This document shows positions 22,124 through 64,000 of a stretch of 64,000 nt of DNA, one piece after another (position 1 is the stretch's first letter; every line of letters begins with the position of its first letter). The stretch is from the IMG/VR virus record IMGVR_UViG_3300022689_000474, positions 32,001 through 96,000 of that record. One strand, 5' to 3'. The stretch is from a virus. The notes under the pieces are model-generated. The model had not been told where the DNA came from. It saw only the letters and a list, made by a program, of their open reading frames with translations, and did no database searches. The translations under genes were made by a program, and so were the position numbers.

Positions 22124-22972
22124 ATGCCTCAAATACCTAGTTATTCTTCTACTCAAAGTGAATTATACTGTGCCCCGGTAGATAATACAGGTCTTGATCC
22201 TATGCAGGGTTTTGACTTCTTTGTTTGGGTTGCAGATGTTTGTACTGGTAAATTGGCTTGGTTTGGAGCCTTCCAAAGTTTAACTCTATCCATAAGAGAT
22301 GCTACTGAAACTTATTTAGAATTAGGACAACGTATCCCTATTCATCTTAATGGTGAAATACAAATAGCCTGGGTTCTAGAACAAGGTTTAGTTGATTATC
22401 AATTTATTTATAGGACCTTTGGTGTTAAATCAATTAGAAGGGATATGTATATTACTAGAGGTCCAAGATTCCAAATCTCTTTTGATGGTAATGCTTATGA
22501 ATTAGATAGGTCCGCAGATGGTTCTGGAAGAGGGATAGTCGCTAATGGTACTGTTGATAGAGCTAATGATAGTGGTATTGGGGGAGATGATTTATATCGA
22601 TGGGGTTCTGATGAATATTTGCACTTGAGTGCAGATTTCTATTCCTCTGATACTAACTTTAGACCTATTAGATCAGGTCGATATGATGTCTTAAGATGTA
22701 AAGTTGATTCTGTTTCTCTTGGTATAATGCCCGGTAGAAGGGTCGCAGCTGTTAGATGGGAAGGAGTTGCAGAAGGTATAGCTTATGTTAATGAGACTGT
22801 TCAACAATTTAAGACTGAAAGAACTACTAATACTAGTGGTAATTTCCTTAATCAACTTGGAGTTGAGAATATTAATATTGGGGATCTGACTGGTGCAGCA
22901 GTTGGAGGTGGTGGTGGTAGGCTTAGTAGTAATGTTGAACAACTTAATCAGACTTTGGCTTCAGGTGGTTAA
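22124..22972 (+). CDS. tail tube protein
   Basis: Follows the sheath; DPMQGFDFFVWV...GAFQSLTL...YLELG...GEIQIAWVLEQGLVD...VRWEGVAE fits T4 gp19-like tubes. Confidence 0.85.
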   Translation: MPQIPSYSSTQSELYCAPVDNTGLDPMQGFDFFVWVADVCTGKLAWFGAFQSLTLSIRDATETYLELGQRIPIHLNGEIQIAWVLEQGLVDYQFIYRTFGVKSIRRDMYITRGPRFQISFDGNAYELDRSADGSGRGIVANGTVDRANDSGIGGDDLYRWGSDEYLHLSADFYSSDTNFRPIRSGRYDVLRCKVDSVSLGIMPGRRVAAVRWEGVAEGIAYVNETVQQFKTERTTNTSGNFLNQLGVENINIGDLTGAAVGGGGGRLSSNVEQLNQTLASGG

Positions 22973-28237: not shown

Positions 28238-28714
28238 ATGAATAAATCTATAAAACCATTAGTAGTACTTCATGAATCTATCATTCCTCTAGAAAAACTT
28301 TATTCTTTCTTGAGAGATAGATCTATTGAAAATTCATATCATACTTTGATAAAAAGAAATGGTTCTATAGTTTATGTCACTTCACCTGATAAAAGAGTTT
28401 TGGCTGCTGGACAACCCTCTTCTTTTAGAGGAGAATCTATATCTGATTCTGTAGACCCTTTCGCTTATCATATTTGTCTTATTAGTCCTACTCAAAGAAA
28501 TATAGATGGGTCTCATAAAGGATATACCGAAGAACAATATAAAAGTCTGGGATGGTTACTTAAACAATTAATGATTCCTTGGGAAAGGATTACTACTCAT
28601 AAAGAAGTAGATCTTACTCGGAGAGCTAGAGATCCAGAAGGTTTTAATTATTTTATTCTTAAGAAGAATTATATAAGGGCTAGATTAATAAAACCTATAT
28701 TCTTTAAGGTGTGA
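28238..28714 (+). CDS. N-acetylmuramoyl-L-alanine amidase (Amidase_2 / AmpD-like)
   Basis: VVLHES, SYHTLIKRNGSIVY, YTEEQYKSLGWL, ITTHKEVD...RDP zinc-amidase motifs. Confidence 0.88.
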   Translation: MNKSIKPLVVLHESIIPLEKLYSFLRDRSIENSYHTLIKRNGSIVYVTSPDKRVLAAGQPSSFRGESISDSVDPFAYHICLISPTQRNIDGSHKGYTEEQYKSLGWLLKQLMIPWERITTHKEVDLTRRARDPEGFNYFILKKNYIRARLIKPIFFKV

Positions 28715-28715
28715 T

Positions 28716-30794
28716 ATGAGTCAAATAGATAAAAGTAGTGAAGATTATAAAGCATTTCTTAGGGCTTTAGAGTTTACTGCAAAATGGGAAGGAGGCTTTT
28801 CTGATCATCCTGATGATGTGGGAGGACGTACTTATAAAGGTGTTACTCAAGGTTCTTGGGATAGTTTTGCTTCATCTAATAGTCAGTATTCCGCGAAAGA
28901 TGTTGCTAGTCTTACTGATGAAGAAGTGGCTGATTTCTATTATTTAACTAGATGGAAAGCAGTTGGTTTAGATGAATCAATTCCTTATCCTCTTAGTGTA
29001 GCTATCTTTGATACCGCTGTTAATTTTAATGAAAATACTGCTTGGGCCTTTATTAATGAAGCTATCAATCCTGATTCACCTAAACATAGTCTAACTAGAG
29101 ATGAACAAGAAAAAATTAAACAACAAGTTCTAGAAATGTTAAAGAATGGGGAAATTACTCCTGAAGAATTAACTAAAAAACAACTTGATAGAAGGTTAAC
29201 TCAACATCACCAAACTGCTAGTAAACATGGTGACCAGCAGTCTTTTATACAGGGATGGGAAAATAGAGTAAATGATTTAGCTAATTTAGCTGGATATAAT
29301 GGAGCTGATGTTGGAGAGCCTATGGAGTATGATACCGATACACCTACTTCAGGTTCGACCCCCCCTACTTCAGGTTCGACCCCCTCAGCCTCTTCTCCTG
29401 ATAACACCTCTGAGACGGGACCTGCTATTTCAGCAACTGGTTCATCAGGAACCTCTGGTAGTATGGTTTCAGACGGTATATATATGATTAAAGCTACCTT
29501 TGAAAGGTTTCCTCTTATAGAAAGTATGAGACATAGAAAGATATTTGGAGGTTATAAACTTAAAGCTTCTCAAATGATAGGTGTAGGAGCTACAGATAAA
29601 GTAGGTGGACCTGGTGTCGGTAATACTAAATCTACTCAAGAAGATTCTAATAATTCCTCAGATGATAGTAATGTTGAATTTGATTATGGAGGTGTATGGG
29701 GAGATCCTTTACCTGCTAGTGATTCTATCCTTACATCAGGATATCAACAAGATAGAGGTGGTAGGCCCCATCCAGGTGTTGATATAGCTTCTTGGACTGA
29801 TGCTGATGTAGTGGCTTCTGCTGATGGTGTAGTGTCAGACATTTCTTTAGGACATAGCGGGGGTTTTGGTAATCTAGTAGTACTCACTCATAGTGTTGGA
29901 GATCAAACTATATATACTCAATATAATCATATGGCGGATGGTTCTATCGTTGTTAGTAAAGGAGATAAAGTTACTAAAGGACAAAAGTTAGGTAAACAAG
30001 GTGCTACGGGTGTAAGTAGAGGAGCTCATCTTCACTTTGAATTAAGGAATACCTTTAGTGATTCTAGGGCTAATTTCTTATCTACTCATTATGATCCCTC
30101 TTGTGTTATAGAAAGATGGAAGAGTCATTGTTCTTATAATCAACCCAATGGTTCTACAATGATGCCTCCTAATCCTCCTGCTAAAGAACCTTCTAATAGT
30201 GGTGAAGCAGCTTCTAATGGAGGGTCAGGTGATTCGGGGAGTACAAATGGTGAAAGTGGAAGTGAGGCCGGAGTCTCTCCTGATACTTCTGAAGAGGAGG
30301 GTACTTCAAGACAAACTTTATATGGACATAAGAAATATGATGAAGCTCCTGCTTCTGATTTAGTAGATGTGGCAGGTATGCAATTAAGAACTCAAGCTGC
30401 AGATTCTTTTAGAGAGATGGTAGATGCAGCATCTGCTGAAGGTATTAATCTTGTAGGAGTTTCTGGTTTTAGATCTATAGCAGATCAAGATTATTTATTC
30501 CATGAAATAGCTAAACAAAGGGGTCAAACTCTTGAAGAGAGAGCTAAAGTAAGTGCACCTCCAGGATATAGTGAACATCATACTGGTCTTACAGTAGATT
30601 TTGGAGATGGTAATAATCCTGATACACATGTTGAACCCTCATTTGAGAATACTGCTGCTTATAGATGGTTAGCTGAGAATGGGCCTAGATATGGTTGGGA
30701 AATGAGTTTTCAGAAAGGAGATCCTAATGTAAGTTATGAACCATGGCATTGGAGATATATAGGGTCAGCCGAAGCTCAAAGTATTTTTAGATAG
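28716..30794 (+). CDS. three-catalytic-domain peptidoglycan hydrolase (GH108 + M23 + M15B/VanY)
   Basis: WEGGFSDHPDDVGGRTYKGVTQ...FDTAVN...FIQGWENRV (GH108 + PG-binding); HPGVDIA...YNHM...HLHFE (M23); SGFRS...SAPPGYSEHHTGLTVDF...YEPWHWRY (M15B). Confidence 0.92.
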   Translation: MSQIDKSSEDYKAFLRALEFTAKWEGGFSDHPDDVGGRTYKGVTQGSWDSFASSNSQYSAKDVASLTDEEVADFYYLTRWKAVGLDESIPYPLSVAIFDTAVNFNENTAWAFINEAINPDSPKHSLTRDEQEKIKQQVLEMLKNGEITPEELTKKQLDRRLTQHHQTASKHGDQQSFIQGWENRVNDLANLAGYNGADVGEPMEYDTDTPTSGSTPPTSGSTPSASSPDNTSETGPAISATGSSGTSGSMVSDGIYMIKATFERFPLIESMRHRKIFGGYKLKASQMIGVGATDKVGGPGVGNTKSTQEDSNNSSDDSNVEFDYGGVWGDPLPASDSILTSGYQQDRGGRPHPGVDIASWTDADVVASADGVVSDISLGHSGGFGNLVVLTHSVGDQTIYTQYNHMADGSIVVSKGDKVTKGQKLGKQGATGVSRGAHLHFELRNTFSDSRANFLSTHYDPSCVIERWKSHCSYNQPNGSTMMPPNPPAKEPSNSGEAASNGGSGDSGSTNGESGSEAGVSPDTSEEEGTSRQTLYGHKKYDEAPASDLVDVAGMQLRTQAADSFREMVDAASAEGINLVGVSGFRSIADQDYLFHEIAKQRGQTLEERAKVSAPPGYSEHHTGLTVDFGDGNNPDTHVEPSFENTAAYRWLAENGPRYGWEMSFQKGDPNVSYEPWHWRYIGSAEAQSIFR
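29343..29384 (+). repeat. 21-bp perfect tandem duplication in the GH108-M23 linker
   Basis: CCTACTTCAGGTTCGACCCCC x2 (PTSGSTP x2), creating a C7 run at 29359-29365. Confidence 0.9.
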
Positions 30795-32913: not shown

Positions 32914-35900
32914 ATGCCAAACTTAACATCTCAATCAGTACCTTTCTCTTTATCTGCAGAAGAGGTATATGATCAATTAAGTATATTAGAAGAGGGATAT
33001 AACTTAAATGATCTTGTAAATAGTAATATAAATGAACTTACATTAGATAATGTCGCTGAATTAGGAATTACTTCAGCAGATTATAATATACCACTTAATC
33101 CTCCTAGTCCTCCTACTAATGAAGAAGTATCTGAACAAACTAATACTACATCAAGTACTGAAGAAACTGGAAATATATCAGTAGGTCCCTATGAAAATAT
33201 AGATGGTTTAGAAGTAGCTAATAATGTTACATTACAAGATTACGATACTTCTAAAGTTGATAAGTTTGAAGAGTTATTATCAGAAGATGCTAATTTAACT
33301 ACAAGTAAAGCTAGTGATGCTTTTAGTGATCTTGTAGAAAATCCTAAAGGAGAAGATAATGAAGGGTCGGGAGAAAAATCTAATGAGACCGGTGATGGTG
33401 ATAAGAACGATGGTAGTGCTTCTAACCTTACTAATTCTGATGAAGATAATGATCTTATAGCAGGAAAGGTTATGGCTGAAGCTAGAGCTGCTGTTAAAGG
33501 TTCAATAGTTCAAGAGGATGCAGTAAACCTTAGTATGAAAGCTAAGAAAACTACTAAAGAAACTAAAGAAAGTCTAGATGCTGCTCAACAAGGAAGTACT
33601 ACAGAAAGAAATGGAAAAGTAACTGAAGGGTCTGAAGAAGTTTTAAAGACTGCTAATCAAACTATAAGTAAAGCTATAGATGAATTAGTAGAATCAAAAG
33701 CTACTAATTCAGGTATAAGATTCTCGGCTAATGATGCGATAAGTTTTAGTACTCATAAAGGTATAAATTTATCTACATCAGGAGCTATTACGAATATAGC
33801 TGCACAAAAGAATGACTATTCCAATGTTTTGTATACTTCTACTGAATATTCATATACTGAGAGTAATCTATCTAATACTGATACAAATATAAAGGTCGAT
33901 AATAGTAAGAATAGTATTTCTCGTAATGTTAATTCCTTAGAATATTCTAGAAATAGAGAAATAAATACTGAAGTTACTTCTTTAAATGCTACAGAAGCTT
34001 TACAAACTGCATCTAAAGAAAGAGTTGAAGTATTTGAAAATGCACAAACACAAGGAGGTACATATAAACTTTCTGTAGAGAAGAATCAAATAAATAATAT
34101 AGGTGAATCTCTTATTGTAAGTGTAGGTTCTGAAGTTCCTAATAAAACAGAATCTCCAGCTTTTAATCCTTTATCAGTAATATCAGATGTGGCTTCTGGA
34201 AAAGGAGGTTATCTATTATCAATAACACCTGATACATATGATTTACAACAGGAAGGAGCTATAAATATACATTCTAGTCAGAATCAAACATATGTTGCTG
34301 ATTCTATAACTGATATATCAGATAAAAATAGAGTATCTCTTAGTAAACAAAATATAATCTCTTATACACCAGGTAATGAATTTAGAGTATCAAATAATAT
34401 GACTACCGCAACATTACTTGGTGGTGGTACATCTATTTTAGGTAGATTTTCTTTTATGGGAGGTCTATTTGGAATGATAAGTAATGTTGCAGAAATAGCT
34501 TCTAATATATTACCTGGTCTGTCTCTACCCTCTGATTTACCTATGCCTCCTATAGGAGAAAGACCTAATGCAGGACTCAAAGTAGATATAGATGCTTGTA
34601 TTCCAAGTAAATATAAAGATTATATATCTGGTACTAGCCCCGAAGGTAGTTCGGAGGATTTAAATTCTGATATATCTAATGATATATCTTCAGATTATTC
34701 TTTTTCTGATTCACCAATTTTAGATGATCTTACTAATACAGGTAATTTAGATCAAACTTTAGATAATACTTATTCTATACAACCCCCTTCTGATTTGGGT
34801 GAAACTTTTAATGCAGGACCTATAGGTGATATTACTCTAATAGAAAATGAAGGTACTGAAGTAGATGGAGTACAAGATGAAAATGCTGGAGATATTATCA
34901 GTGGTACAGAAGTAGATGATCTAGATGGATCTTCTCAGACTTTAGATGACCCCATACCTTCAGAGGATGAATTAGTAGAAAGTTTAGATGAGAAGAAACC
35001 TACTTCTAAAGAATGGACATCTGGTAGAGGGGTTGAGACATCTCAAGGTTTCTCTGCAGATAGTAAAACTAAGAACCAAGAACAACCGGATGCTTCTACT
35101 CAAAAGAAATCAAAAACAGGATCATCTTTAAGTAGTACAGATAATAAATCAAGTTCAAAAGGAGTATCAAGAGAGAAAAGGATGAAAGTATGGTTTGCTC
35201 CTCATACCTACTTTGATCTATTTGAAGAAGATGACTTTGAATATAATAATGCCCCACCGTATCAAGGTGATCCTATGGATGTAGGTAAGACAGATGTAAA
35301 GGTTGAAGAGGGTAATACTCCGGAGTTAAATAAAATAGCAAAGAAATCTATAGAAGATAGTATAGAGTCTTCTAATTTAGAAGAATCTTCTAAAGAGAAA
35401 TTATTAAGTAATACTTCTAATGTATTAAATGCTTTGTCTTCTCTAAATATAACTAATTCTGAAGAAATATCTAGAGATATTGTTATAGGAACTTTAAGTA
35501 CTTTAAATTTAAATTTAGATGAGAATGAAAAAGACATTTTATACCATTCTTATTTAGAATTAAATGGTAATATAGCTTTATCCATTGGTATATTTGGTAC
35601 TATAATGCCATTAATACAAGATGCTGCTAATGTAGCTTCAAATGTATTTTCTCAAGTCTCTTCTATAAGTAGTATGGTAGGTATAGATATAGAAGGAGGA
35701 TTCGCAGATTCTGTTATGAGCGTTATAGATCAAATTAAAGGAGGTCTTAATGTAAGTTCTGTGGCATCTTTATTAGATAGTTCTGGAGAGTTAAGTAAGT
35801 TTATTCCTGTAGGTCAAAGTATTATAGCTATGCTTAATAATCCTGAAGGTAAAGTAGATATAAAAGATACTATTATTAACACTTTATTACCACAAGTAGA

Positions 35901-37659
35901 ATCTTTAGTACAACCAATATTAGGAGGTTATGATTCTATAAGTATTAGTAATATAACTACATCTATTAGTAATCTTCTTAGTGATGGTGCTTTAGATGGT
36001 ATGGGACCTGAAGAGATATTATTAAGAGCTCAAGGATTATTAAGTCAATCAAATATTTTACCTGATGAAGTAAATACTTTAATGCAATCAATAGGTCCTC
36101 TACTTACCTCTTTTTCTGAAGGGGGGAGTATAAATAGTTTGATAGGAGGTGATTTAATATCTCAAATAACTTCTAGTTTAGGTATAGATATGTCTCCAGT
36201 AAGTAATGTAATAGGTAATCTTGAGGGAATAGTGGGTAGTGTCAATGCTTTATTAACTATTCCATCTATCCTAGATGCTATGAATGATTATGATATACCT
36301 TTACTAACTCAGATAAGTTCTGCTATTGAATGTGTTGATCTATTCTCTCGTATCAAAGATATTATTGGTATAGTTAAAGACCCTTTAAATTATCAATCTC
36401 AATTCTCTAATCCAGGAGCTTTACAATCTTTGGGTTTACCTATTGATTCTTCTATGACTAGTATTCAAGGTTTAATGACGGGTCTCCTGGGTGATGATAT
36501 TTTAACTGGTCAAAGTTCAGGTATTATTTCTAGTACTTTAGGAGTTATATCAACATTAAGAAGTTCTTTAGGTAGCTTTTCTTTAGCAGGATTAGGAGAT
36601 GACACTTATTCAAATAATTCCTCTTCTGAAGGATCAGAGTATGATAGTTCTTCAGAGGAATCAGTAGATATAAATGGAATAAGTAATAGTTCGGATGAAT
36701 TATCCCAGACACTTAATAATGAAATGTTAGGAACACAGACTATAGCATCAGGTAGTTCAAATTCATATAATTTAATAAATGAATATGTAACAGATCAAAG
36801 TAATAATATAATTCCTGGATTTTACTCTGAACCTCGTATTAGATCGATAGATACAATTGAAGGAGAAACTTTAGAAGGTTATTTCTCTGTAGATGAATTA
36901 GGTAATGTAGCAGTAAGATCTCAAGGAAAACATGATTGTGAGGATCTTATAAGTAGAATATATAATACTAATCAGATAGTAGCAATAGAAGAGAATTTAG
37001 ATTTAGATAATGTAGAGTTTGGAACGTATGTTCCTCTTGATGAGAATAATCCTTTAAACCCTGATTATAATTTAGATGGTCTAATTTCATATAATGATTT
37101 AATGAATGATCCAAATTACAGAATATTCTTTGAAGATCCAGAACTTGGGGAATTTGAGATAAAAGATTCAAGCATATATCTAAATGATATAGGAGTATCT
37201 GATATAAATGGTAATCCATTGGGCTTTTGGACTTCAGGAGTTAATAATGATAATGGAGGTTTAGATATAATAAGAAATTCTGTTTATGATAATGTGAATA
37301 GAATATATGATGAAGATAATAATCTTTTAGGTGTCTCTACTAATAATAATAATATTAATTTAGAGACATTTGATCCAAACGGTTTAGTTTCTACTATTAA
37401 TTATACTTGTGAAGGTAGATTTAGTGATTTTATTAATAGTTTTAAAAGATTAGATAAATTTAATAGATTTATCATATTAAATGAAGATAATATATTTGAA
37501 GTACTTCCTTATGGTAGTATTAACTATAATAACACTGATAAGATATCTTATTCTTATTCTAGTAAAGTAGAAAGGTTTGATATTAATACTATTAAAGAAA
37601 TCTCAGTAATGATTGATAATAGACTTTTATTACAGTGGTCCCAAGATGAAAGATTTTAA
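32914..37659 (+). CDS. large acidic virion protein with a gp5-C-like beta-helix segment and amphipathic helical region
   Basis: 1581 aa; about 8-residue strand periodicity (GIRFSANDAISFSTHKGINLSTSGAITNIA...KLSVEKNQINNIGESLIVSVG); later G/S/I/L-rich amphipathic helices. Confidence 0.55.
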   Translation: MPNLTSQSVPFSLSAEEVYDQLSILEEGYNLNDLVNSNINELTLDNVAELGITSADYNIPLNPPSPPTNEEVSEQTNTTSSTEETGNISVGPYENIDGLEVANNVTLQDYDTSKVDKFEELLSEDANLTTSKASDAFSDLVENPKGEDNEGSGEKSNETGDGDKNDGSASNLTNSDEDNDLIAGKVMAEARAAVKGSIVQEDAVNLSMKAKKTTKETKESLDAAQQGSTTERNGKVTEGSEEVLKTANQTISKAIDELVESKATNSGIRFSANDAISFSTHKGINLSTSGAITNIAAQKNDYSNVLYTSTEYSYTESNLSNTDTNIKVDNSKNSISRNVNSLEYSRNREINTEVTSLNATEALQTASKERVEVFENAQTQGGTYKLSVEKNQINNIGESLIVSVGSEVPNKTESPAFNPLSVISDVASGKGGYLLSITPDTYDLQQEGAINIHSSQNQTYVADSITDISDKNRVSLSKQNIISYTPGNEFRVSNNMTTATLLGGGTSILGRFSFMGGLFGMISNVAEIASNILPGLSLPSDLPMPPIGERPNAGLKVDIDACIPSKYKDYISGTSPEGSSEDLNSDISNDISSDYSFSDSPILDDLTNTGNLDQTLDNTYSIQPPSDLGETFNAGPIGDITLIENEGTEVDGVQDENAGDIISGTEVDDLDGSSQTLDDPIPSEDELVESLDEKKPTSKEWTSGRGVETSQGFSADSKTKNQEQPDASTQKKSKTGSSLSSTDNKSSSKGVSREKRMKVWFAPHTYFDLFEEDDFEYNNAPPYQGDPMDVGKTDVKVEEGNTPELNKIAKKSIEDSIESSNLEESSKEKLLSNTSNVLNALSSLNITNSEEISRDIVIGTLSTLNLNLDENEKDILYHSYLELNGNIALSIGIFGTIMPLIQDAANVASNVFSQVSSISSMVGIDIEGGFADSVMSVIDQIKGGLNVSSVASLLDSSGELSKFIPVGQSIIAMLNNPEGKVDIKDTIINTLLPQVESLVQPILGGYDSISISNITTSISNLLSDGALDGMGPEEILLRAQGLLSQSNILPDEVNTLMQSIGPLLTSFSEGGSINSLIGGDLISQITSSLGIDMSPVSNVIGNLEGIVGSVNALLTIPSILDAMNDYDIPLLTQISSAIECVDLFSRIKDIIGIVKDPLNYQSQFSNPGALQSLGLPIDSSMTSIQGLMTGLLGDDILTGQSSGIISSTLGVISTLRSSLGSFSLAGLGDDTYSNNSSSEGSEYDSSSEESVDINGISNSSDELSQTLNNEMLGTQTIASGSSNSYNLINEYVTDQSNNIIPGFYSEPRIRSIDTIEGETLEGYFSVDELGNVAVRSQGKHDCEDLISRIYNTNQIVAIEENLDLDNVEFGTYVPLDENNPLNPDYNLDGLISYNDLMNDPNYRIFFEDPELGEFEIKDSSIYLNDIGVSDINGNPLGFWTSGVNNDNGGLDIIRNSVYDNVNRIYDEDNNLLGVSTNNNNINLETFDPNGLVSTINYTCEGRFSDFINSFKRLDKFNRFIILNEDNIFEVLPYGSINYNNTDKISYSYSSKVERFDINTIKEISVMIDNRLLLQWSQDERF

Positions 37660-45227: not shown

Positions 45228-48200
45228 ATGAGTGAAATATATAGTTATAAAAGTTTAGATATATATAGAGATAGGGCTTCATCTGATAAGAATTGGTTGA
45301 GGATTATACCAATACCTGGTCGTCCTATACAAAATAATGAGTTGATAGAATTACAATCTATAGTACAAAATCAACTTAAATTGGCCTTATCTTCTATATA
45401 TAAAAATCATTCTCCTATAGATGGATTACGTATATATATACAAGAAAATACTATTAAAGTTACTCCTGGTAAATTCTTTATAGATGGATTTGTTTTAGAT
45501 ATACCAAGTGCTATCTTCTCTCAAAATATAGCTGTAGATAGTCAAACAGCTTTACTTAATAGTATTGATTTTGAAGAGACAATAACCATTGGTATTAAAG
45601 TAGATGAACAGATAATTACAGAAATAGAAGATCCTAGTCTTAGAGATCTTATTAATAATACAAATTTATATGGTTATCCAGGAGCTCATAGATTAGTTTG
45701 GAATGCTAAGGTAGTGTTTAATGATCCCTCTTCATTTCAAATAGGTTATGTAAAAAGAGGAGTTGTTTATCAAAGTAGAATATCATCTATAGGTAAATTA
45801 GAAGATCTTATAGCTCTTACAAATTATGAAAGAAATGGCAATTATATATCTTCAGGATACGAAGTAGAAGCTAATAATCAATTTACATCTATAAATCAAT
45901 TTGTAAATTATAGTGGATATTATTCTCCTGAAAGTACTAATTTAAAGTTTATTAGATCTTTACAAGAATCTTTAGACGAAGCTCAGTTAAATTATGATAA
46001 TTTATCTACTTCTCTATCTTCTGCTTTGAGAGATTATAATAATAATCCTACTGATACAGCATCTTCTTTTATTAATAAAAGTTCTAAAAGATTAAATAAT
46101 ATTTTATATGATATAGATTTTTATAGATCTAAATTATCTGAATCTATAAATAATCTAAATGTAGATTATGGAAACTTGAGATCAGAAGGTATTATAGATG
46201 AAATTATAGTTGCTCCTGGTATTGCTTCTGTAAAGGGGTATCGTGTAGAGAAATCATCTTCTACTAAATTCTCTATACCTAGAGTTTTAAGTGAAGGTAG
46301 GGTTATAGGGGCTAAATTTAGATATCGTAATGATAATTCTGTAACCCGTAGATCAATTTTATTACATGAAGGTTATACCATACCTGGAATTAAAACTTTA
46401 GAAAAAGAATTATATATATCTTTATCAGGTATTTTATATCAAGAATTATCTCTTTCTCCTAAAATTACTGTTTTATTAAATAATAATCTACCTGAATATG
46501 TCATTAATATGGATTCTCTTATAGATTTCATTGTTAATGAATTAGTATTCTCTATATCTCTACATCCTAATATTCAGATATATGATCATACATCTCCAGA
46601 TAGGGATAGAGTAGTATTAAGATCTATAATTAATAATAATTTAATAATATCTAAGGTATCAAATAATACGATAGAGTTTTCTTCTATAACAGCATCTATA
46701 AAGATGATAAATACAACTACATCAACAGACTTTATGGAGTGGGATAGGAGGAGTACATATATAGGGGATGCTTCTACTCTTAGAGATTTTCAATTGGGGT
46801 TTAGACCAGTAGTAGAAATAGATTCATTAGTAGCTGACTTAGAAAAGTTAAATGAAGCGGTTATAAGGAGTAATGGAGATAGAGATATGTTAGGAGATGA
46901 TTCAGTATTTTCAGTTATTAGAGTATTCCAAGGTGGTATATCATTTACAGAAAATATAGATTTTATACTAGATGGTCTCAATAGTATAAGATGGATCTCT
47001 TCTAATAGACCAAATCTTAATAGTATTTATTATGTTAGTTATATATATACTGAACCATTAGAACAAGATATACATTATAGATTAAATAGATTAAATGACA
47101 GTATAGAGTTTATAAGTGATAAGAAACCAGTACAAGGAGGTACTTTTACTGTAGATTATACATATGCTATAGATAGATATGGTTATGTTTCTTTGAATAG
47201 ATTTGGAAATATTAAAGTACAATTCAATGAGTTAGATGTAAAGGTAATACCATCTCCACCTAAAGATGAATTATTATTATCTAAATTAGTAATGAATCCA
47301 AAGGGAATAGAAGTATATAATAATGAGTATTCTAAATCCCTTACAGTCTCTCAATTAAATAGTTTCGAACAGAGATTAAAGGAAATAGAAATAAATATAG
47401 ATACTACTCTTGATATTATAGAAGGTTATGGTTATGTAAGTAGTGAAACACCTCTTAGTATATCTAAAAGTTTCTTATTTGAAAAGCTTAATGAAGATAT
47501 TAATTATGTAGAAAGTACTTTCTCCTATTTACCTCTTATAGGAGCAGCAGGACCTATATCTTATTATGCAGATTTAGAATTAAGAAGAGTATCAGGAGGA
47601 CATTTAATAAGGAATAATTTAGATAATACACCAAGTGCTGTTTGTTTACCTTATTCTAATAATACTTTACCTATTGGAGTAGAAAGGGAAACTACTTCAA
47701 GTATTAATCTAACTTATATAGAAAGAGATAGAGCATATATACACGTATCTCCCAGATCATTCTTTTATAATTACACAGCTGATTCTACTGATACTAATGT
47801 GACGTATCCATCATCATATATATCTTTATTACTTTCTAATAATATCAACTCTCCAAGTATTAGTAAGTTTGCTAGATCATTATTTAGAAATTATACAAGA
47901 TATATATTACCCCTTAATTATGATGTACAGAGTAGTATTGAATATGGTATCTCTTATGATACTTTATATACTTTAGATGAATTGAAAGATCTAGAGGGTC
48001 TTTCAGGTATAAAGATAAGACCTGATTATATCTTAGTATACTCCTGGAATTTACCTAAATCTAAAAAAGGATTTACTGTATATATAGATGGTGATCTAGT
48101 AGATAATTTAATCCCTTTAGAAGGAACTCAAATAGTAGGTAATACTCTTACTTCATCATTTGAAGGAGAGCTAAAGTTTAAGATATTTTTACCATCTGAC

Positions 48201-49514
48201 TTGAATACCGGGTCATATATTATCTCTATAGTTAGAGGAGCTTTTAAAGCTGAAGGAATATTTAATATAATGAATAATCCAGTTAATAATATGGTAATGA
48301 GTTCTAATAATATTTGGGATAGTAGTGTAGATCTCCTTACTTATTCAGATCAATGGAACTATTCTGAAGGTATTATTAATACCAATTCTACTTATGATAT
48401 CTCTGTTAGTGATACTTCATCTAGTAGTCTTTATACTAATTCTAGAAGTCCTATTAATCAATTATTTATATGTTCTTCTACTTTCTTTATAGATTCTATA
48501 GATATTAGTTATACTAATTTAGGTATTAGTGGTACATATATATTATTTAGAGAAACATTATTATCAGGAGAATATTCTAATGTAGAATATATTCCTAGTG
48601 AAAGTGTATTATCTAAAGGATTTCCTATATCTACAATAGTAGAAGATGGTATTAGTACAATAACTTATAAATTTCCTGAGCCTATAAAAGTTAATAGAGG
48701 AGATATATATTGTGTAAGTATAGAGAGTCTTGGAGACGAATATACTTTACTTACTAATAACTTTAATTATAAAGAGGATAATGATTATCTCATCTTTTAT
48801 GATGATTATAATAATTACAAATTATTATTATCTAGTGATGGATATTCTCTAATAGAATCTTCTAATCAAAACTTAATATATAATCTAAATATATGTAATT
48901 TCTCAGAAGATATGATAGTTACTGTTGATTTAGGTAATTATAATCATCCTTCTTCAAGTATTATATCTCACTTCTCTTTAAATTGTGGTTTATTAGTACC
49001 TGAAAGTACTTCCATTTCATTTGAATATAATGGAGGTTCAGGATGGAAATCATTCTATCCTAATTCTTTAATCAGTATAGATAGTAATAGTAGTGTATTA
49101 AGTTTAAGAGCTAATTTATATAGTAGTGATGTAAATGTATCTCCAATTTTATCTTTAGAAGGAAGTTCTGTTGCTTTATATACAAATTCAGGAAGTATTA
49201 TTATATATAGTAAACCAATTATATCTACAGATACTTATACAAATGTAGAAGTTCATATAGAACTAAAAGTAAATAGTACTACTACTATGTCAGTTATAGG
49301 GTCATCAACTTCTGGAGATACTTGGTTCAACTTAAATAAAGATCCTAGAGAATTCTTAATTGATTCAACAGGTACAGTTGTTAGGTATATATATAGAAAG
49401 GTAGATTTACCTTCAAATGTAATAAGGAATAATTTTATATTTAAGATAAATTGTAATTTCACCCAGGCTCATGACTTTTCTTTTATAAAAGTTATAAAAG
49501 TATATGCCTATTAA
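45228..49514 (+). CDS. DUF4815-family baseplate / receptor-binding protein
   Basis: YRDR...KNW..I...PGRPIQNNELIELQSI, EDPSLRD...YGYPGAHRL, YERNGNYISSG, PGIASVKGYRVE. Confidence 0.8.
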   Translation: MSEIYSYKSLDIYRDRASSDKNWLRIIPIPGRPIQNNELIELQSIVQNQLKLALSSIYKNHSPIDGLRIYIQENTIKVTPGKFFIDGFVLDIPSAIFSQNIAVDSQTALLNSIDFEETITIGIKVDEQIITEIEDPSLRDLINNTNLYGYPGAHRLVWNAKVVFNDPSSFQIGYVKRGVVYQSRISSIGKLEDLIALTNYERNGNYISSGYEVEANNQFTSINQFVNYSGYYSPESTNLKFIRSLQESLDEAQLNYDNLSTSLSSALRDYNNNPTDTASSFINKSSKRLNNILYDIDFYRSKLSESINNLNVDYGNLRSEGIIDEIIVAPGIASVKGYRVEKSSSTKFSIPRVLSEGRVIGAKFRYRNDNSVTRRSILLHEGYTIPGIKTLEKELYISLSGILYQELSLSPKITVLLNNNLPEYVINMDSLIDFIVNELVFSISLHPNIQIYDHTSPDRDRVVLRSIINNNLIISKVSNNTIEFSSITASIKMINTTTSTDFMEWDRRSTYIGDASTLRDFQLGFRPVVEIDSLVADLEKLNEAVIRSNGDRDMLGDDSVFSVIRVFQGGISFTENIDFILDGLNSIRWISSNRPNLNSIYYVSYIYTEPLEQDIHYRLNRLNDSIEFISDKKPVQGGTFTVDYTYAIDRYGYVSLNRFGNIKVQFNELDVKVIPSPPKDELLLSKLVMNPKGIEVYNNEYSKSLTVSQLNSFEQRLKEIEINIDTTLDIIEGYGYVSSETPLSISKSFLFEKLNEDINYVESTFSYLPLIGAAGPISYYADLELRRVSGGHLIRNNLDNTPSAVCLPYSNNTLPIGVERETTSSINLTYIERDRAYIHVSPRSFFYNYTADSTDTNVTYPSSYISLLLSNNINSPSISKFARSLFRNYTRYILPLNYDVQSSIEYGISYDTLYTLDELKDLEGLSGIKIRPDYILVYSWNLPKSKKGFTVYIDGDLVDNLIPLEGTQIVGNTLTSSFEGELKFKIFLPSDLNTGSYIISIVRGAFKAEGIFNIMNNPVNNMVMSSNNIWDSSVDLLTYSDQWNYSEGIINTNSTYDISVSDTSSSSLYTNSRSPINQLFICSSTFFIDSIDISYTNLGISGTYILFRETLLSGEYSNVEYIPSESVLSKGFPISTIVEDGISTITYKFPEPIKVNRGDIYCVSIESLGDEYTLLTNNFNYKEDNDYLIFYDDYNNYKLLLSSDGYSLIESSNQNLIYNLNICNFSEDMIVTVDLGNYNHPSSSIISHFSLNCGLLVPESTSISFEYNGGSGWKSFYPNSLISIDSNSSVLSLRANLYSSDVNVSPILSLEGSSVALYTNSGSIIIYSKPIISTDTYTNVEVHIELKVNSTTTMSVIGSSTSGDTWFNLNKDPREFLIDSTGTVVRYIYRKVDLPSNVIRNNFIFKINCNFTQAHDFSFIKVIKVYAY

Positions 49515-58525: not shown

Positions 58526-58957
58526 ATGAATGTTATACTATTTGAATTACTTAATAAAATAGATTATTTAAGTAGAAAACCTCTTAAGATAGAAATAGGA
58601 AGTGAATTGGCTAGGGATCAATATGTATCTCTTCATAAAAGATTCCCTGATATGCCAGATGATAAGAAGTTGGGTATAGCTAACTTATTACAGAATTATA
58701 ATCTTAGAGACTTTACAGATTTAGAATTAAAGACATTATCTGAATTAAGATTAGATCTATTATTTCATAATCCTAATCAATCTATTGAAAGACAAATATT
58801 AAGGGGTAAAAGATTATATGATACTGGTTCTCCTAGAGTTTATAGATTATTATATGATAATAATGTTAATGCGGAGAATATAGAATATATGAGAGCTACA
58901 ACTTCTTTTACTCCTATTACTATTATTAAGAATTTAGCAGATATTTATATTTATTAA
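58526..58957 (+). CDS. hypothetical protein
   Basis: 143-aa ORF, no motif. Confidence 0.65.
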   Translation: MNVILFELLNKIDYLSRKPLKIEIGSELARDQYVSLHKRFPDMPDDKKLGIANLLQNYNLRDFTDLELKTLSELRLDLLFHNPNQSIERQILRGKRLYDTGSPRVYRLLYDNNVNAENIEYMRATTSFTPITIIKNLADIYIY

Positions 58958-58974
58958 TAAGAGGTATTTAAATT

Positions 58975-61900
58975 ATGAGTGATCCACTTTATGAATCTCA
59001 ATTAGCTACATTAAACCTAGAAGATCCACCTATTGAACAGGGTCCAGATGTAACTTGTTATAAATATGTATTGGTTCCAGACTATCTTGTAGATTTCTAT
59101 AAGAATAATATTAAAGATAGGTCTAAAGTTTTAATTAATGAAGAAATGGATGGAACGGGGGATAAGAAAATAATAATGGTTGATATTACTATAGATAATT
59201 TTGTCCTCTTTGAAGCTCTTAATTATTTAGCAGAAGAAATAAGTGGATTTTCTACATTTACTGATGTAAGTAATGAAGAACAATATATAATATTAGAAGA
59301 AATCTTAAATAATCCTTCTTATAAAAATGCTGTTTCAGAATATATAAATAAAAAAATCTCTGAAACAACTAAAAGTCTTGGATTGAGTAATGATATAAAA
59401 GTGACATATAGATTAATAGGATTTGAAGCTCTTTATACTTTTTATAACTTGGATAGTATTTTTAAGAAAAGTGATATAGGAGCGACTCTTACTATAGATC
59501 AAGATCTCTTAGATTTTTCTACTCGATTACTTAGAGAAAGTATCAAAGGTTTAAGACTATTTACATTTGACCCCCCATTAGTAGAGAAAAAAAATCCTGA
59601 TGATAGTTTTAGATATGAAGTAATACCTCTTCATTTATTTAAGAATGCTCAAGTAGGTTTTGAGTATGATATTACGTTTAATATAGATTATGTACCTCAA
59701 GAGGGCTGTCAAGAACCTCAAGCTGAAACTGCCCCTACTCAACCAACTCCAACTATTACAGCAGAAGAAGCTACAGTACCAATAGATGCTACTTCTATTA
59801 GTCCGATAGAAGATGAAGAGGTAGTATCACAAACTACTCCTAATGGATCTCTTTACTGTCCTACTGATGAACAGGTTGAGTTAGAAATAGATACCTTAAG
59901 AAAAAAAGCAATTCTTTCATATGAAACTCTAATATCTGAAGCTGAAAGTTTTACATTCACAGATTCAGTATCGGAGTTATATAACAATATTAAGCCATCT
60001 TTAGTTAATATAGATAAAGAGAATTTATTAGATTCTATATTTTCTAAAACTATTGGAGAAGATACTACTCTATCTAAATTAATTCAAGCACAAGACAATC
60101 TAAATCAAATAATACTTCAAATAACAAATGACAGTATTCCATCATCAACTGATCTTGATAAAAACAAGTTAGAGACTTTATACAACCATATTCAAAATAT
60201 TATAGATATACATCGACAGTATCTAACTTTGATAAATTATAAGGATAATTGTGAAAATCCAGAAGTAAATGATAAACTTATTGAACCTGAACCTGTTGAA
60301 CCTACAGAGAAACCAGAAGTACCTCAAGAAGAAGTAGAAGTAGATGCAGGTCCTTGTGAAATATTCCCTAATAAAGGAAATGATGATTGGGGTATTAAAT
60401 TTACTTATAAAGAAAGTCCTAATATAAGTGGATTACTTAGGGCTAGTTGTGAAGGTACTGCCGGTTCATTCTATGATGATACTGGAGAGAATGATGATAT
60501 TGAAGAAGAAGTTCTTCTTAATAATCAAGAAGAAGGCGGAGAAGGATCAGAAGATAGACAAGCTTTAGCAGAAGCTACAATAAACACAATAGAAGAGAGA
60601 GAACAAAGAATAGCAGAAGAAGGTAGTGCGGTATCAGGGCCAAGTACTCCTGAGTTATCATCATCTTCTGGAGGTTATTCATCAGGAGGAGAATTACATG
60701 AATGGGAAATGACTTTATTACCCGCCATGAGATCAGTAGTTCCAAAAAGTCCTGGTATGGATGTTCCTAATGTAATGCCTGGTTTACAATTCCAGATACG
60801 TTCAAATATAGCTAAACATAGAGTACCTGGAGGACAAGCTATATATCAGAATTTAGGTGTAGATTCTGTCATGGTAACTATAGTAGGTTGTTTTACAGGT
60901 GATGGGGGGTATGCTACAGAAGCTTCCTTGGCTGGAAGGGGAGAGAGTGTAACTACTGCTTCTCCAATACTTTCAGAGGGTGATAATCCTTTCATAAATT
61001 TAAGTAGAGAACTAAGTGATGATGAAAAAACCCAACTTGAGAACTTTCCTTTAGAAACAGATCCCCAGAATGCATTAAATACATTTAATAGTTCTAATGT
61101 TACAGATATGAACTTTAATGGTTTATCTAGTATATCTACAAGTTCTATGAAACCTACAGGAAGGGGAGGAAGAATATGGGAATTAGATGGATGCCCCTGT
61201 GATCCTGATATGGGTAACTCTTATTTATCTAATAGTGACCAACCATATATAGTAGGTAGTGGAAGTAAAGTAATACCTCAATACTTTAATGGACCTGATT
61301 GGAATCAGAGACCAACGATGTTTACATTATATGAACAATTAAGGAGATTAGATTCATATCATGAATTTACTTCTTTTTATAAAATGGCTATAGAACAAGG
61401 AAGAGAATTAGAAATAGAGATAAATTTAGATAAATATAGTAATGGTTTAGAATCTCAAAAGAATTTATATAAGAAGTATGGATTAGATTCTACATCATCA
61501 GTAAAACATATGGATAGTGATTGGGGTCCTTTAAGGAATGGTGCTAATGGTAATCCTAGATTCAAAGGACTTATTAAAGCAATGGAAGTATATCATTCTA
61601 AAGGGGATAGAACATGGTATTTAATGCAAGTAGAATTAACGGATTTAGGTCTTACTACTGATATCCCTTTAAATCTTACTAAGATAGTACAAGAGGCAAG
61701 TGATCAAGCCATACAAGAAGCAGGTAGTGAAGATGATAGTGGATTTACAACAGAGTCGAATAGATTACTTGACTGTTTACTTATGGAACATCCTGAATAT
61801 TCTGTGGATCAATTTAATGATGTACCTAATAGAGCTTATTATAGATCAAGTACTAGTGATTCTAATAAAAATAATAGAATGGTATGGTCTACTACAACTG

Positions 61901-64000
61901 GACAAGGTATGTTATATACTGTTGAGAAAGTAAAAGTAGCTAAGCAAGAAATTAAGTATGCTAAAGCAATTGGTTCAAAGACTCTATTAGAACCTAGAGA
62001 AATGATAGGAGCTCTTATAGAAGGAGGAAGAAGTAGTAGATGGAAGTTATCTGATATAAGATCTTTTAAGAAATATTTACATTTATTAAATACTGGAGCT
62101 ATTTATGCCATTCCAAATTCTGCTGCGGGAAATTGTGGTAATCAAGCCCCTAGACCGAGAGAAGAAGGAAATGAACTTGAAGTTGCTCTTGGACCTTCTG
62201 AAGCTGTAGGAGATAATACATTAAGATATGGAAATATTCAATCTATTCCTTGGTTGAGTGAATTACTTGAGGGTGTTGACTCGAAGGATCCTAATCATTT
62301 AGGTTATTGGAAACCTAAACAATGGAAAACAGAAGAATTAGGAGGTGGAGAAAGTGAAAACGTTACTAAACTTTTCTCCTCTTTAAATGAGATTTATAAT
62401 GATGAAGATCTAACCGATTCTAATATTGATACTGCTTGGTTTATGGGATATAGATTAAAACTTATTAAAACTGGCCCATTACAAGGCTATGGACTTATTA
62501 GAAGAAGTAATAACGCTTTTACAATATTAAACCCTGCCCAAGTTATTCTTAATATTACTGAAGGTGAAGGCACTGGTAATTGGAAAAACTTTAATGTTGA
62601 AGGAGACTTAGAAAAAGTCATAAGTAATGTTTGTTTAAGAAGAAATCCTAACGGAATACTTGATAGGATGTCTACTGGTTATGGAAGTGATGATCCACAA
62701 CTTATAAAAGAACAAGCTGAGTCTTGTATGACCTTTTTTACTCAGGGTGATATAGCTAATTGGCAGTCTTCTTCTATAGATACTGGAGATCCATATAGGA
62801 TTGGAGATGGAGAATTAATCAGAAGACTTGTTGCTAAAGTTTTACTAAGTTGTGGGAGTCTAGTTGTAGATGTAGTTGGTGGATTGTTTTTATCAGTAGC
62901 AGCTGGTTTATTAACTGGTGGTGTTTTAGCTTTTATAGGAGCAGTCTTTACTCTTTTTACTGCGGTTGTTGCTTTAATTGATTGTCTTAAAGCAAGTTGG
63001 GATATAATTCAATACTTAAGGTTAGAAGATAAAAGTAGAATTTCTGTACCCAGTAATCAGGAATTACAACTAGATATTCTCTTTGCATTAGTTCCTTTCG
63101 TTCCCCAATTAGGTGCTTTTAAAACATTTGTTAATGCGGCTCGAGGTGCTTTTCAAAAGATTAAAACTGTTGCTCAAGCCTTTGAAAAGATACCTATATT
63201 AGGTAGTGTAATAGGCGTCGTTAAAAAAATGTATAAAGCACTTGTTGATTATGTTAAACCTTCTCCAGGCACAGAGGCACTTCTAAATAGAATCTCTGAT
63301 TTTCTTGAAGATGTAAGATTGAAAATGGGGAAAAAACCAGCTCCTACTACTCCTGGTACTCCTGGTTCTAGTACTCCTGGTACTCCTGGTTCTAGTACTC
63401 CTGGTACTCCTGGTTCTGGTAGTACTCCAGGTATACCTTCATTAAAATCAGTAGATGATTTTATAGATGAAATTCCTACTAATATAAGGCAGAGTATTGG
63501 AGAAAATAATCTACAAAGCTTTTTTAATGATCTTGCAAATAAATTTGGTATTCCTAGTAATGCAACTCCAGGTATTACCATTGATGGTGATCTCTTGTAT
63601 TCATGGCATGATGCTGCAGGTGTTCGTCATGAATTAACTCTTTTTCCTAGTGCTGAGTCAGGAAAGGTTCGTATAAAATATGGAAGGGGTCCTGATATAG
63701 GTCAAGTAAAAACTGTAAGTGATGGAGTATATAATGTAGATGATATAGATAATATTATTACTAATCCCCCTCCTAATAATACTCCTCCAGGTACTACCTC
63801 TCCCCCTGTAAATAAAATCTCTGTACAAGATTTTAAAAATCAAGTTACTTTATCACCACAAGTTGTTGATTCTATAAATGCTAATCAACTAACATCAGAT
63901 CAATTTATAGACAGTCTAATAAATAAATTTAATATATCTCAAGATGCTAATTTCACCACTCTAGCAGATGGTTCAATTATTGCTGATTGGGAAGTTAATG
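58975..64000 (+). CDS. giant protein (>1675 aa, partial; absent from ORF track) with tube-initiator-like fold, hydrophobic hairpin and repeats
   Basis: GAGGT SD at 58961, ATG 58975 (MSDPLYESQL...). Every segment translated by hand was open, and the track reports no closed ORF in this frame. Contains SNIAKHRVPGGQAIYQNLGVDSVMVTIVGCFTG...QGRELEIEI...FKGLIKAMEVYHSKGDRTWYLMQVEL (P2 gpU / Mu gp43-N-like). Confidence 0.85.
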   Translation, partial: MSDPLYESQLATLNLEDPPIEQGPDVTCYKYVLVPDYLVDFYKNNIKDRSKVLINEEMDGTGDKKIIMVDITIDNFVLFEALNYLAEEISGFSTFTDVSNEEQYIILEEILNNPSYKNAVSEYINKKISETTKSLGLSNDIKVTYRLIGFEALYTFYNLDSIFKKSDIGATLTIDQDLLDFSTRLLRESIKGLRLFTFDPPLVEKKNPDDSFRYEVIPLHLFKNAQVGFEYDITFNIDYVPQEGCQEPQAETAPTQPTPTITAEEATVPIDATSISPIEDEEVVSQTTPNGSLYCPTDEQVELEIDTLRKKAILSYETLISEAESFTFTDSVSELYNNIKPSLVNIDKENLLDSIFSKTIGEDTTLSKLIQAQDNLNQIILQITNDSIPSSTDLDKNKLETLYNHIQNIIDIHRQYLTLINYKDNCENPEVNDKLIEPEPVEPTEKPEVPQEEVEVDAGPCEIFPNKGNDDWGIKFTYKESPNISGLLRASCEGTAGSFYDDTGENDDIEEEVLLNNQEEGGEGSEDRQALAEATINTIEEREQRIAEEGSAVSGPSTPELSSSSGGYSSGGELHEWEMTLLPAMRSVVPKSPGMDVPNVMPGLQFQIRSNIAKHRVPGGQAIYQNLGVDSVMVTIVGCFTGDGGYATEASLAGRGESVTTASPILSEGDNPFINLSRELSDDEKTQLENFPLETDPQNALNTFNSSNVTDMNFNGLSSISTSSMKPTGRGGRIWELDGCPCDPDMGNSYLSNSDQPYIVGSGSKVIPQYFNGPDWNQRPTMFTLYEQLRRLDSYHEFTSFYKMAIEQGRELEIEINLDKYSNGLESQKNLYKKYGLDSTSSVKHMDSDWGPLRNGANGNPRFKGLIKAMEVYHSKGDRTWYLMQVELTDLGLTTDIPLNLTKIVQEASDQAIQEAGSEDDSGFTTESNRLLDCLLMEHPEYSVDQFNDVPNRAYYRSSTSDSNKNNRMVWSTTTGQGMLYTVEKVKVAKQEIKYAKAIGSKTLLEPREMIGALIEGGRSSRWKLSDIRSFKKYLHLLNTGAIYAIPNSAAGNCGNQAPRPREEGNELEVALGPSEAVGDNTLRYGNIQSIPWLSELLEGVDSKDPNHLGYWKPKQWKTEELGGGESENVTKLFSSLNEIYNDEDLTDSNIDTAWFMGYRLKLIKTGPLQGYGLIRRSNNAFTILNPAQVILNITEGEGTGNWKNFNVEGDLEKVISNVCLRRNPNGILDRMSTGYGSDDPQLIKEQAESCMTFFTQGDIANWQSSSIDTGDPYRIGDGELIRRLVAKVLLSCGSLVVDVVGGLFLSVAAGLLTGGVLAFIGAVFTLFTAVVALIDCLKASWDIIQYLRLEDKSRISVPSNQELQLDILFALVPFVPQLGAFKTFVNAARGAFQKIKTVAQAFEKIPILGSVIGVVKKMYKALVDYVKPSPGTEALLNRISDFLEDVRLKMGKKPAPTTPGTPGSSTPGTPGSSTPGTPGSGSTPGIPSLKSVDDFIDEIPTNIRQSIGENNLQSFFNDLANKFGIPSNATPGITIDGDLLYSWHDAAGVRHELTLFPSAESGKVRIKYGRGPDIGQVKTVSDGVYNVDDIDNIITNPPPNNTPPGTTSPPVNKISVQDFKNQVTLSPQVVDSINANQLTSDQFIDSLINKFNISQDANFTTLADGSIIADWEVN
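63349..63417 (+). repeat. 24-bp tandem coding repeat (TPGTPGSS, about 3 copies)
   Basis: ACTCCTGGTACTCCTGGTTCTAGT x2 plus a 21-bp third copy. Confidence 0.9.

Follow-up and report, generated by a model that had tools for sequence, protein, structure and literature searches.

A giant protein of a Ma-LMM01-like phage joins a predicted tail-tube fold to a hydrophobic hairpin and a string of small repeats

The genes gp111 and gp112 of the Microcystis phage Ma-LMM01, which have homologues in phages MaMV-DC/DH01/DL/CH, are annotated only as coding for hypothetical proteins. Phage Mu gp43 (protein N) is a hexameric tube initiator; the C-terminal add-ons of initiators are specific to lineages, and Mu N passes into the host (PMC11915804). 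Tape-measure proteins, in turn, commonly contain hydrophobic segments that have been proposed as inner-membrane conduits (P2 preprint, 10.64898/2026.09.14.750843). Here, a giant gene was analysed that runs off the end of a 64,000-nt stretch of viral DNA (positions 32,001 to 96,000 of IMG/VR record IMGVR_UViG_3300022689_000474). This stretch is referred to as the window, and its numbering is used unless genome positions are indicated. It is probably a late structural gene of a contractile-tailed phage that resembles Ma-LMM01. Its product resembles Ma-LMM01 gp111 and gp112 taken together: it contains the two halves of the gp111 core, and then a hydrophobic hairpin followed by a D-x-x-x-L-x-P element (compare residues 1285–1375). 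There is about an even chance that it is an expanded baseplate protein of the tube-initiator type equipped with a membrane-inserting module; most likely, it is a tail-tip part that also helps to breach the host membrane.

The open reading frame (ORF) starts at position 58975 on the + strand, 9 nt after an AAGAGGT ribosome-binding site (58959..58965, +), and stays open for 1,675 codons up to the window edge (58975..63999/64000). The whole record is 152,052 bp long, is classed by IMG/VR as a provirus and has an estimated completeness of 82%. In this record the frame ends at genome position 98807, 2,807 bases past the window, and codes for 2,610 amino acids (aa) with no stop codon and no N (genome 90975–98807; window-equivalent end 66807). 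Since the frame remains open for 7.8 kb at the 30–34% GC content of this region, an origin by chance is impossible. An initial annotation, made from the letters of the window, had reported a frame of more than 1,675 codons; its coordinates and the peptides it quoted were correct. Pfam gave no match for residues 1–1675 at E ≤ 1, nor for the full protein at E ≤ 0.1. A megablast search against phages gave no match, and neither the protein nor a profile of its family (see below) found a relative among PDB sequences.

The sole PHROG match of the giant protein was phrog_37225, the family of Ma-LMM01 gp111 (E 4.9e-32). Among isolated phages, tblastn found relatives only for residues 576–924 (E 1e-35 to 2e-15), namely Ma-LMM01 gp111, which is ~38% identical over this stretch, the MaMV phages, and Microcoleus phage My-WqHQDG. 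A HMMER scan with residues 561–1420 against 1.84 billion representative proteins identified 138 homologues, 94 of them at E ≤ 1e-10, the common stretches being residues 573–650 and 785–920. Hidden Markov models (HMMs) specific for each half (residues 576–645 and 789–894) detected both halves, in the correct order, in 136 proteins. The loop that connects them measures 11–316 aa (median 35.5), with 143 aa in the giant protein and 20 aa in Ma-LMM01 gp111. The giant protein therefore belongs to the gp111/phrog_37225 family, the smallest members of which have 267–268 aa. Ten distant family members were compared with Pfam and matched no family. A scan of IMG/VR with a tighter family alignment returned five loci, while a scan with a single domain returned nothing. 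Sequences preceding the common core are variable. The N-terminal extension of the giant protein (residues 1–570; 58975..60684, +) is acidic, has Pro/Thr/Glu-rich linkers and gave no Pfam, PHROG or phage tblastn match; across the family, this extension ranges from 0 to 2012 aa (median 197). A D-W-G-I-K-F-T-Y patch (residues 470–477) is the only part of it that is common to the orthologue, a protein designated P0006 that is encoded in a 109-kb metagenomic contig.

Modelling showed residues 576–920 to adopt a predicted tail-tube-fold domain split by the 143-aa insert. The N-terminal half of the core (residues 576–645; 60700..60909, +) contains the motifs LLPAM, PGLQF and NIAKHRVPG..YQ.LG, and the C-terminal half (residues 789–920; 61339..61734, +) the motifs LDSYHEF, NPRFKG and DRTWY; the insert between them (residues 646–788; 60910..61338, +) was predicted to be disordered, or was modelled at low confidence. 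The AlphaFold2 model of the core, obtained from a 60-sequence alignment, had a mean predicted local distance difference test (pLDDT) value of 66, with values of 85–96 for the core strands and a disordered insert. A Foldseek search with this model gave weak rows (best E 0.19), mostly to chains of baseplates and contractile injection systems (CIS). In an exhaustive VIA structure search, however, the 50 top rows out of 50 were tail-tube-fold proteins, and initiators ranked first. The highest score, 8.1, was that of the Mu baseplate chain 9ki1_0 (root-mean-square deviation 3.3 Å, 110 aligned residues), with both core halves falling on its residues 29–141; this chain was verified to be the Mu 'DNA circularization protein N' (gp43), of which the entry contains six chains. 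It was followed by the Milano baseplate chain 8fqc_U1 (7.9), Pvc7 (7.8), a Streptomyces CIS baseplate chain (7.7), lambda gpM (7.7), the pyocin R2 initiator (7.4) and the A-1(L) initiators (7.3). The proposal in the initial annotation of a gpU-like tube fold split by inserts at 60700–61645 thus holds: this region corresponds to the family core (residues 576–645 plus 789–894) around the insert, it models as a tail-tube fold, and its best structural relatives are tube initiators. An HMM search of this genome revealed no second tube-fold gene, and hhalign comparisons of the family profile with the neighbours of 212, 282 and 158 aa gave nothing. The gp111 family seems not to have been linked to a tube fold in the literature before. 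No mention of gp111 was found there, and the protein is not listed in a preprint reporting AlphaFold models of Ma-LMM01 (10.1101/2024.12.13.628456).

The tube fold is followed by a spacer of ~360 aa (residues 925–1284; 61747..62826, +) that is kept only in the close relatives P0005, P0006 and P0014, and for which an ESM Atlas search gave no usable match. The spacer leads to the sole strong hydrophobic block of the protein (residues 1285–1345; 62827..63009, +), which reaches a Kyte-Doolittle maximum of 2.68 over 19 residues. The block is rich in Gly and Ala, has 58 aa without charge, and could by its length accommodate a two-helix membrane hairpin with a likely turn near T-G-G (residues 1313–1315). 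The final two cysteines of the protein, Cys1293 and Cys1337, flank the block; placed at the two ends of such a hairpin they would sit side by side, and it is reasonable to suppose that they could form a disulfide staple. A lipoprotein lipobox at L-L-S-C was considered and rejected, as it would lie 1,290 residues into the protein. The segment after the hairpin (residues 1364–1450; 63064..63324, +) contains a D-x-L-x-x-L-x-P element (LDILFALVP) and then a sequence resembling a basic amphipathic helix. A Pro/Thr/Gly linker, (TPGTPGSS)x3, comes next (63344..63421, +), encoded by 3.2 copies of a 24-nt tandem repeat with 96% matches. The hydrophobic stretch that had been described at 62827–62985, the D...L+P segment, the TPGTPGSS linker and the further domains after them were therefore all present.

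A hydrophobic block of this type was found in 30 of 139 gp111-family proteins, 90–780 aa past the tube fold, and in 17 of these 30 it is flanked by two cysteines. Those 23 proteins whose blocks are longest, namely Ma-LMM01 gp112 and 22 family members, were aligned. A cysteine lies at the start of the first helix in ~18 of them and at the end of the second helix in ~16, and a D/E-x-L-x-x-L-x-P segment is conserved after the hairpin; hairpin, cysteines and segment form a conserved module. The counterparts of the hydrophobic segment and of the D-x-x-x-L-x-P element in Ma-LMM01 are not in gp111; they open the next gene, gp112. The giant gene is therefore a fusion of two genes that are separate in Ma-LMM01. 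That this fusion is no artefact of assembly follows from the orthologue P0006, which is 30% identical to the giant protein over an alignment reaching from the tube fold across the hairpin.

Small alpha+beta repeats separated by Pro/Thr/Ser/Asn-rich linkers make up the last ~1,150 aa; the protein has no cysteine after residue 1337. Jackhmmer detected four significant copies of a repeat termed A-type (residues 1478–1600, 1605–1716, 1788–1851 and 2147–2192), characterised by the pattern (aromatic)-x-W-x-D-x-x-G-x-x-R, and about three weak ones (near residues 1895–1951, 1980–2038 and 2310–2350). The first copy, also modelled with AlphaFold, lies at 63406..63774 (+), and the second, at 63787..64000 (+), crosses the window edge. 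Two repeats of another type, B, occupy residues 2376–2497 and 2494–2610. The model of the first A-type repeat, built with the internal copies as the alignment, had a pLDDT of 79 and a predicted template modelling score of 0.72, and shows three short helices, a five-stranded antiparallel sheet and a final short helix. Comparison with PDB folds gave no convincing match, and none that was enzyme-like, carbohydrate-binding or Ig-like. The repeats had no usable ESM Atlas match, and the C-terminal 1,140–1,170 aa no homologue of similar or shorter length in 5.8 billion proteins, although the low-complexity linkers may have blinded this word-based search. The C-terminus could not be aligned with that of P0006. 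No other protein of the family set has a C-terminal extension as long as that of the giant protein (1,716 aa), in which the length past the hairpin is ~1,265 aa, versus ~780 aa in P0006 and ~600 aa in Ma-LMM01 gp112. Rhs/YD repeats were rejected as an explanation for the string: the W-x-D..G..R units are ~115–130 aa apart and fold as separate small domains. The string would be a lineage-specific, non-enzymatic array with a binding or spacer role.

As a separate observation, an HMM of the A-type repeat weakly matched the C-terminus of Ma-LMM01 gp111 (residues 428–501; L003:11260–12837) with an E value of 0.009 in a small database, and a similar W...G...Y-x-V patch is found past the tube fold of the giant protein, at residues 960–1000. 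The repeat string may have originated by duplication of a small domain that natively follows the tube fold.

If the giant protein is an expanded tube-initiator-type protein, its tube-fold core would form a six-fold ring at the junction between the central hub and the tail tube, either as the tube initiator or as an extra adaptor ring, in the manner of Mu gp43/N, P2 gpU or Pvc7. In this lineage, the ring protein would be fused to the module that gp112 carries in Ma-LMM01, that is, the hairpin with its two conserved cysteines, the D-x-L-x-x-L-x-P segment and the basic amphipathic helices. The hairpins would be shielded within the tail tip in the virion and, after sheath contraction and loss of the spike, could insert into the host membrane, where they might anchor or extend the DNA conduit. 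Such a mechanism would resemble what has been proposed for hydrophobic segments in tape-measure proteins, and also the entry of Mu N into the cell together with the DNA. The structural part of this proposal, already made in the initial annotation, stands: the protein is encoded by a single uninterrupted gene in a tail and baseplate block and has a predicted tube fold. The position of the ring, the presence in the virion, the insertion into the membrane and the role of the repeats are what we infer from it.

Several observations weigh against assigning the giant protein to the initiators. Searches by sequence and by profile revealed no similarity to known initiators (by Pfam, including the DNA circularisation N-terminal domain and with no LysM, or by the PDB profile search), and hhalign gave the alignment of the family profile with Mu gp43 a probability of 0.1. 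The initiator gene of P2 and Mu sits between the tape-measure and hub genes, unlike the giant gene, which lies ~33 kb 3′ of the hub-like gene and 21 kb 3′ of the tape-measure-like gene, after the fibre genes. The hairpin is absent, be it fused or in downstream genes, from My-WqHQDG, from the minimal 267-aa member and from all five IMG/VR loci; missing from most members, it is therefore not essential to the core role of the family. No virion proteome of a Ma-LMM01-type phage was found in the literature, and the gp111 family has no solved structure. Finally, the tail tip would have to accommodate a C-terminal extension of 1,300 aa in six copies, which is not easily explained.

A bolder version of the initiator reading, which we regard as distinctly unlikely, is that the initiator ring itself supplies the membrane channel. 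Six hairpins, each stapled by a disulfide, would be released at the tail tip and assemble into a pore of 12 helices that continues the tube, and the 1,150-residue string of beads would precede the DNA into the host, as a pilot or as cargo. If this were true, Ma-LMM01-like myoviruses would cross the envelope by a route independent of the tape measure.

The location of the giant gene past two tail-fibre-like genes is what would be expected if the protein were instead a ring or adaptor elsewhere in the baseplate, either of the Dit type or a second ring organising the fibres, with an external adhesin string. The hydrophobic block would then be buried in protein–protein contacts, and the repeats would form outward whiskers that bind the host envelope or mucilage polysaccharide. 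The structural comparison leaves room for this, the Dit proteins and lambda gpM being at most 1 Z unit from the initiators, as does the fact that most of the family dispenses with the hairpin. The C-terminus is cysteine-free and not alignable with that of the closest orthologue, as expected of fast-evolving parts that contact the host, and the style of its linkers also fits; Pro/Thr linkers between small domains are typical of extracellular binding arrays. However, an uncharged block of 58 aa with a Kyte-Doolittle value of 2.68 and conserved flanking cysteines resembles a membrane element rather than a protein core, the fold of the repeat matches no carbohydrate-binding or Ig-like domain, and no relative of the repeats was found in other fibre or adhesin proteins. 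We consider this arrangement possible, though unlikely.

It is more doubtful that the protein is a tape-measure-like or lumen-resident ejection protein, in which the part after the tube fold would reside inside the tube, be expelled ahead of the DNA and form an inner-membrane conduit, partly or wholly replacing the tape measure. Hydrophobic segments are common in tape-measure proteins and have been proposed as such conduits (10.64898/2026.09.14.750843), and none of the ORFs of this phage had a match to a tape-measure family as such. Nevertheless, the giant protein itself had no PHROG or Pfam match to tape-measure families and its gene position also differs; a separate ORF of 1,581 aa (32914–37659) would be the better candidate by position and composition. 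Further, the modelled repeat is a globular alpha+beta domain rather than a long helix, and the length past the hairpin varies widely among close relatives.

The initial annotation had likened the hairpin and the segments after it to those that precede the cargo in polymorphic toxins. It proposed a structural tail protein carrying either an effector or a DNA-entry channel, which would insert into membranes and be co-injected, and it placed any catalytic tip beyond the window. As a delivered effector, the protein would use the hairpin and pre-toxin-like segments to carry a variable toxic C-terminus, with an immunity gene downstream. Transmembrane helices do precede the cargo in some type VI effectors, and the C-terminus cannot be aligned with that of the orthologue. 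In addition, the giant gene is immediately followed by a 169-aa basic ORF (genome 98939–99477) that lacks a counterpart in two syntenic loci, L010 and Ma-LMM01, and that precedes a terminator-like hairpin, the only one in the 1-kb stretch scanned (L002 2600–3600). Yet, when the downstream sequence was retrieved, no catalytic tip was found: the C-terminus had no Pfam match and no homologue of similar or shorter length, and it consists of repeats of one small domain whose fold does not look enzymatic. None of the pre-toxin or trafficking domains sought (PT-TG, PT-VENN, PT-HINT, LXG, PAAR and others) was detected by Pfam in residues 1–1675 or in the full protein at the thresholds given above. Nor did Pfam detect any family, toxin or enzyme domains among them, in seven hairpin-bearing relatives, the syntenic orthologue included. 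The 169-aa ORF has no family match and no immunity gene was recognised; all other downstream genes are conserved phage morphogenesis genes, and the giant gene itself lies within a conserved virion morphogenesis block. Judged by its sequence, the giant protein shows no sign of being a toxin, and delivery as an effector is highly improbable; this removes an annotation that would otherwise be misleading. It is hardly credible that an assembly or frameshift error joined gp111-like, gp112-like and other genes for, although the tube-fold and hairpin parts are on separate, overlapping genes in Ma-LMM01 and the tandem-repeat DNA within the ORF could mis-assemble, these repeats are short (≤86 nt) and in frame, the 7.8 kb contain neither N nor stop, and the fusion of tube fold, spacer and hairpin recurs in independent assemblies of other samples (P0005, P0006, P0014 and ~26 others).

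The rest of the window corresponds to the virion module of a contractile-tailed phage, and the virus is a large, cyanophage-like relative of Ma-LMM01. The module contains genes for a portal (at 8165), major head protein (12540), sheath (19010), probable tube (22124–22972), a hub-like protein of 749 aa (23119–25368), and a spike-like protein with a weak Phage_base_V match (25378). After an amidase (Amidase_2; 28238), a lysin (28716) and the tape-measure-like ORF come Baseplate_J (39105), a BW3TFN wedge component (44678), a giant DUF4815 protein of 1,428 aa (45228–49514) and two fibre-like proteins (52375 and 54794). The gene order then continues with a 143-aa gene, the giant ORF, four small genes and an intein-bearing large terminase. 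This order matches that of Ma-LMM01 (gp107–gp118), in which the flanking genes are syntenic from BW3TFN through the terminase, and that of the 109-kb contig bearing P0006. The genes 3′ of the giant gene include orthologues of Ma-LMM01 gp114, gp116 and gp118. The gp116 orthologue is a 178-aa gene, three genes 3′ of the giant gene; in Ma-LMM01, gp116 was assigned as a baseplate structural protein by ORF modelling (10.1101/2024.12.13.628456). The gene for a distant 267-aa member of the gp111 family comes directly after gp25-like, wedge and BW3TFN genes.

The 143-aa gene immediately upstream of the giant gene (58526..58957, +) has no family match. A gene of ~140 aa lies immediately 5′ of the gp111-family member at every locus examined (this phage, L010, L013–L017 and Ma-LMM01): the upstream ORFs of L013–L017 have 138–145 aa, gp110 occupies the equivalent position in Ma-LMM01, and the 143-aa product is similar to that of the 164-aa gene preceding P0006 (BLASTP E 1.7e-4). 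This small gene could code for a chaperone or a structural partner.

Other genes of the module deserve mention in their own right. The region 28238–30794, between the spike-like and wedge genes, contains the Amidase_2 gene followed by one for a 692-aa protein combining a GH108 lysozyme, an M23 peptidase and a VanY carboxypeptidase; it probably codes for a tail-associated set of lysins. The 1,581-aa ORF, which lies between the lysin and wedge genes, is rich in Ser, Asn, Gly and Ile and matches nothing in Pfam or PHROG; its position and composition would make it the best tape-measure candidate of the phage. The two ORFs 5′ of it (240 and 449 aa) are rich in Tyr, Leu and Asn, and the longer one has a strong hydrophobic segment at residues 330–355. 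The 1,428-aa protein matches DUF4815 (E 1e-56) and phrog_877; its gene, directly after the BW3TFN gene, is the gene-order counterpart of Ma-LMM01 gp108, and it is probably a large component of the baseplate or fibre network. The large terminase (1,294 aa; genome 102285–106169, past the window end) is split by an intein, detected as Intein_splicing (under the Pfam cut-off) and LAGLIDADG_3 matches at residues 588–919, between the ATPase and nuclease parts. An 872-aa terminase orthologue in L010 aligns to both flanks of the intein.

In comparison with Ma-LMM01, this phage not only fuses both genes, but adds the 570-aa N-terminal extension, the 360-aa spacer and the array of ~1,150 aa of repeats. 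Mu gp43/N (PDB 9ki1 chain 0) has its tube domain at the N-terminus, uninterrupted and followed by a helix-rich/LysM extension, and lacks both a membrane hairpin and repeats. The other initiators and adaptor rings compared (P2 gpU, Pvc7/Afp7, the pyocin R2 and A-1(L) initiators, T4 gp48/gp54, siphophage Dit and lambda gpM) measure 110–500 aa, versus 2,610 aa here. None of them is known to have a transmembrane hairpin or a string of repeats exceeding 1,000 aa. The combination of a tube-fold ring, a cysteine-bracketed hairpin and such a string is without a described counterpart among initiators. Lambda gpH, T5 Pb2, T4 gp29 and P2 gpT are virion tail proteins whose hydrophobic helices have been proposed to act as a membrane conduit after ejection. 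The hydrophobic segments of tape-measure proteins, however, lie in long helical proteins of the tube lumen, with genes beside those for the tube and chaperones, while the hairpin of the giant protein is on a tube-fold ring protein. How the DNA of contractile-tailed phages crosses the inner membrane once the outer layers have been pierced is still open, and current proposals lean on the tape-measure protein. In part of the gp111 family, the presumed ring protein either contains a conserved, predicted membrane hairpin bracketed by cysteines or is linked to one genetically, and this points to a specific candidate for the step at the membrane in Microcystis phages of relevance to blooms.

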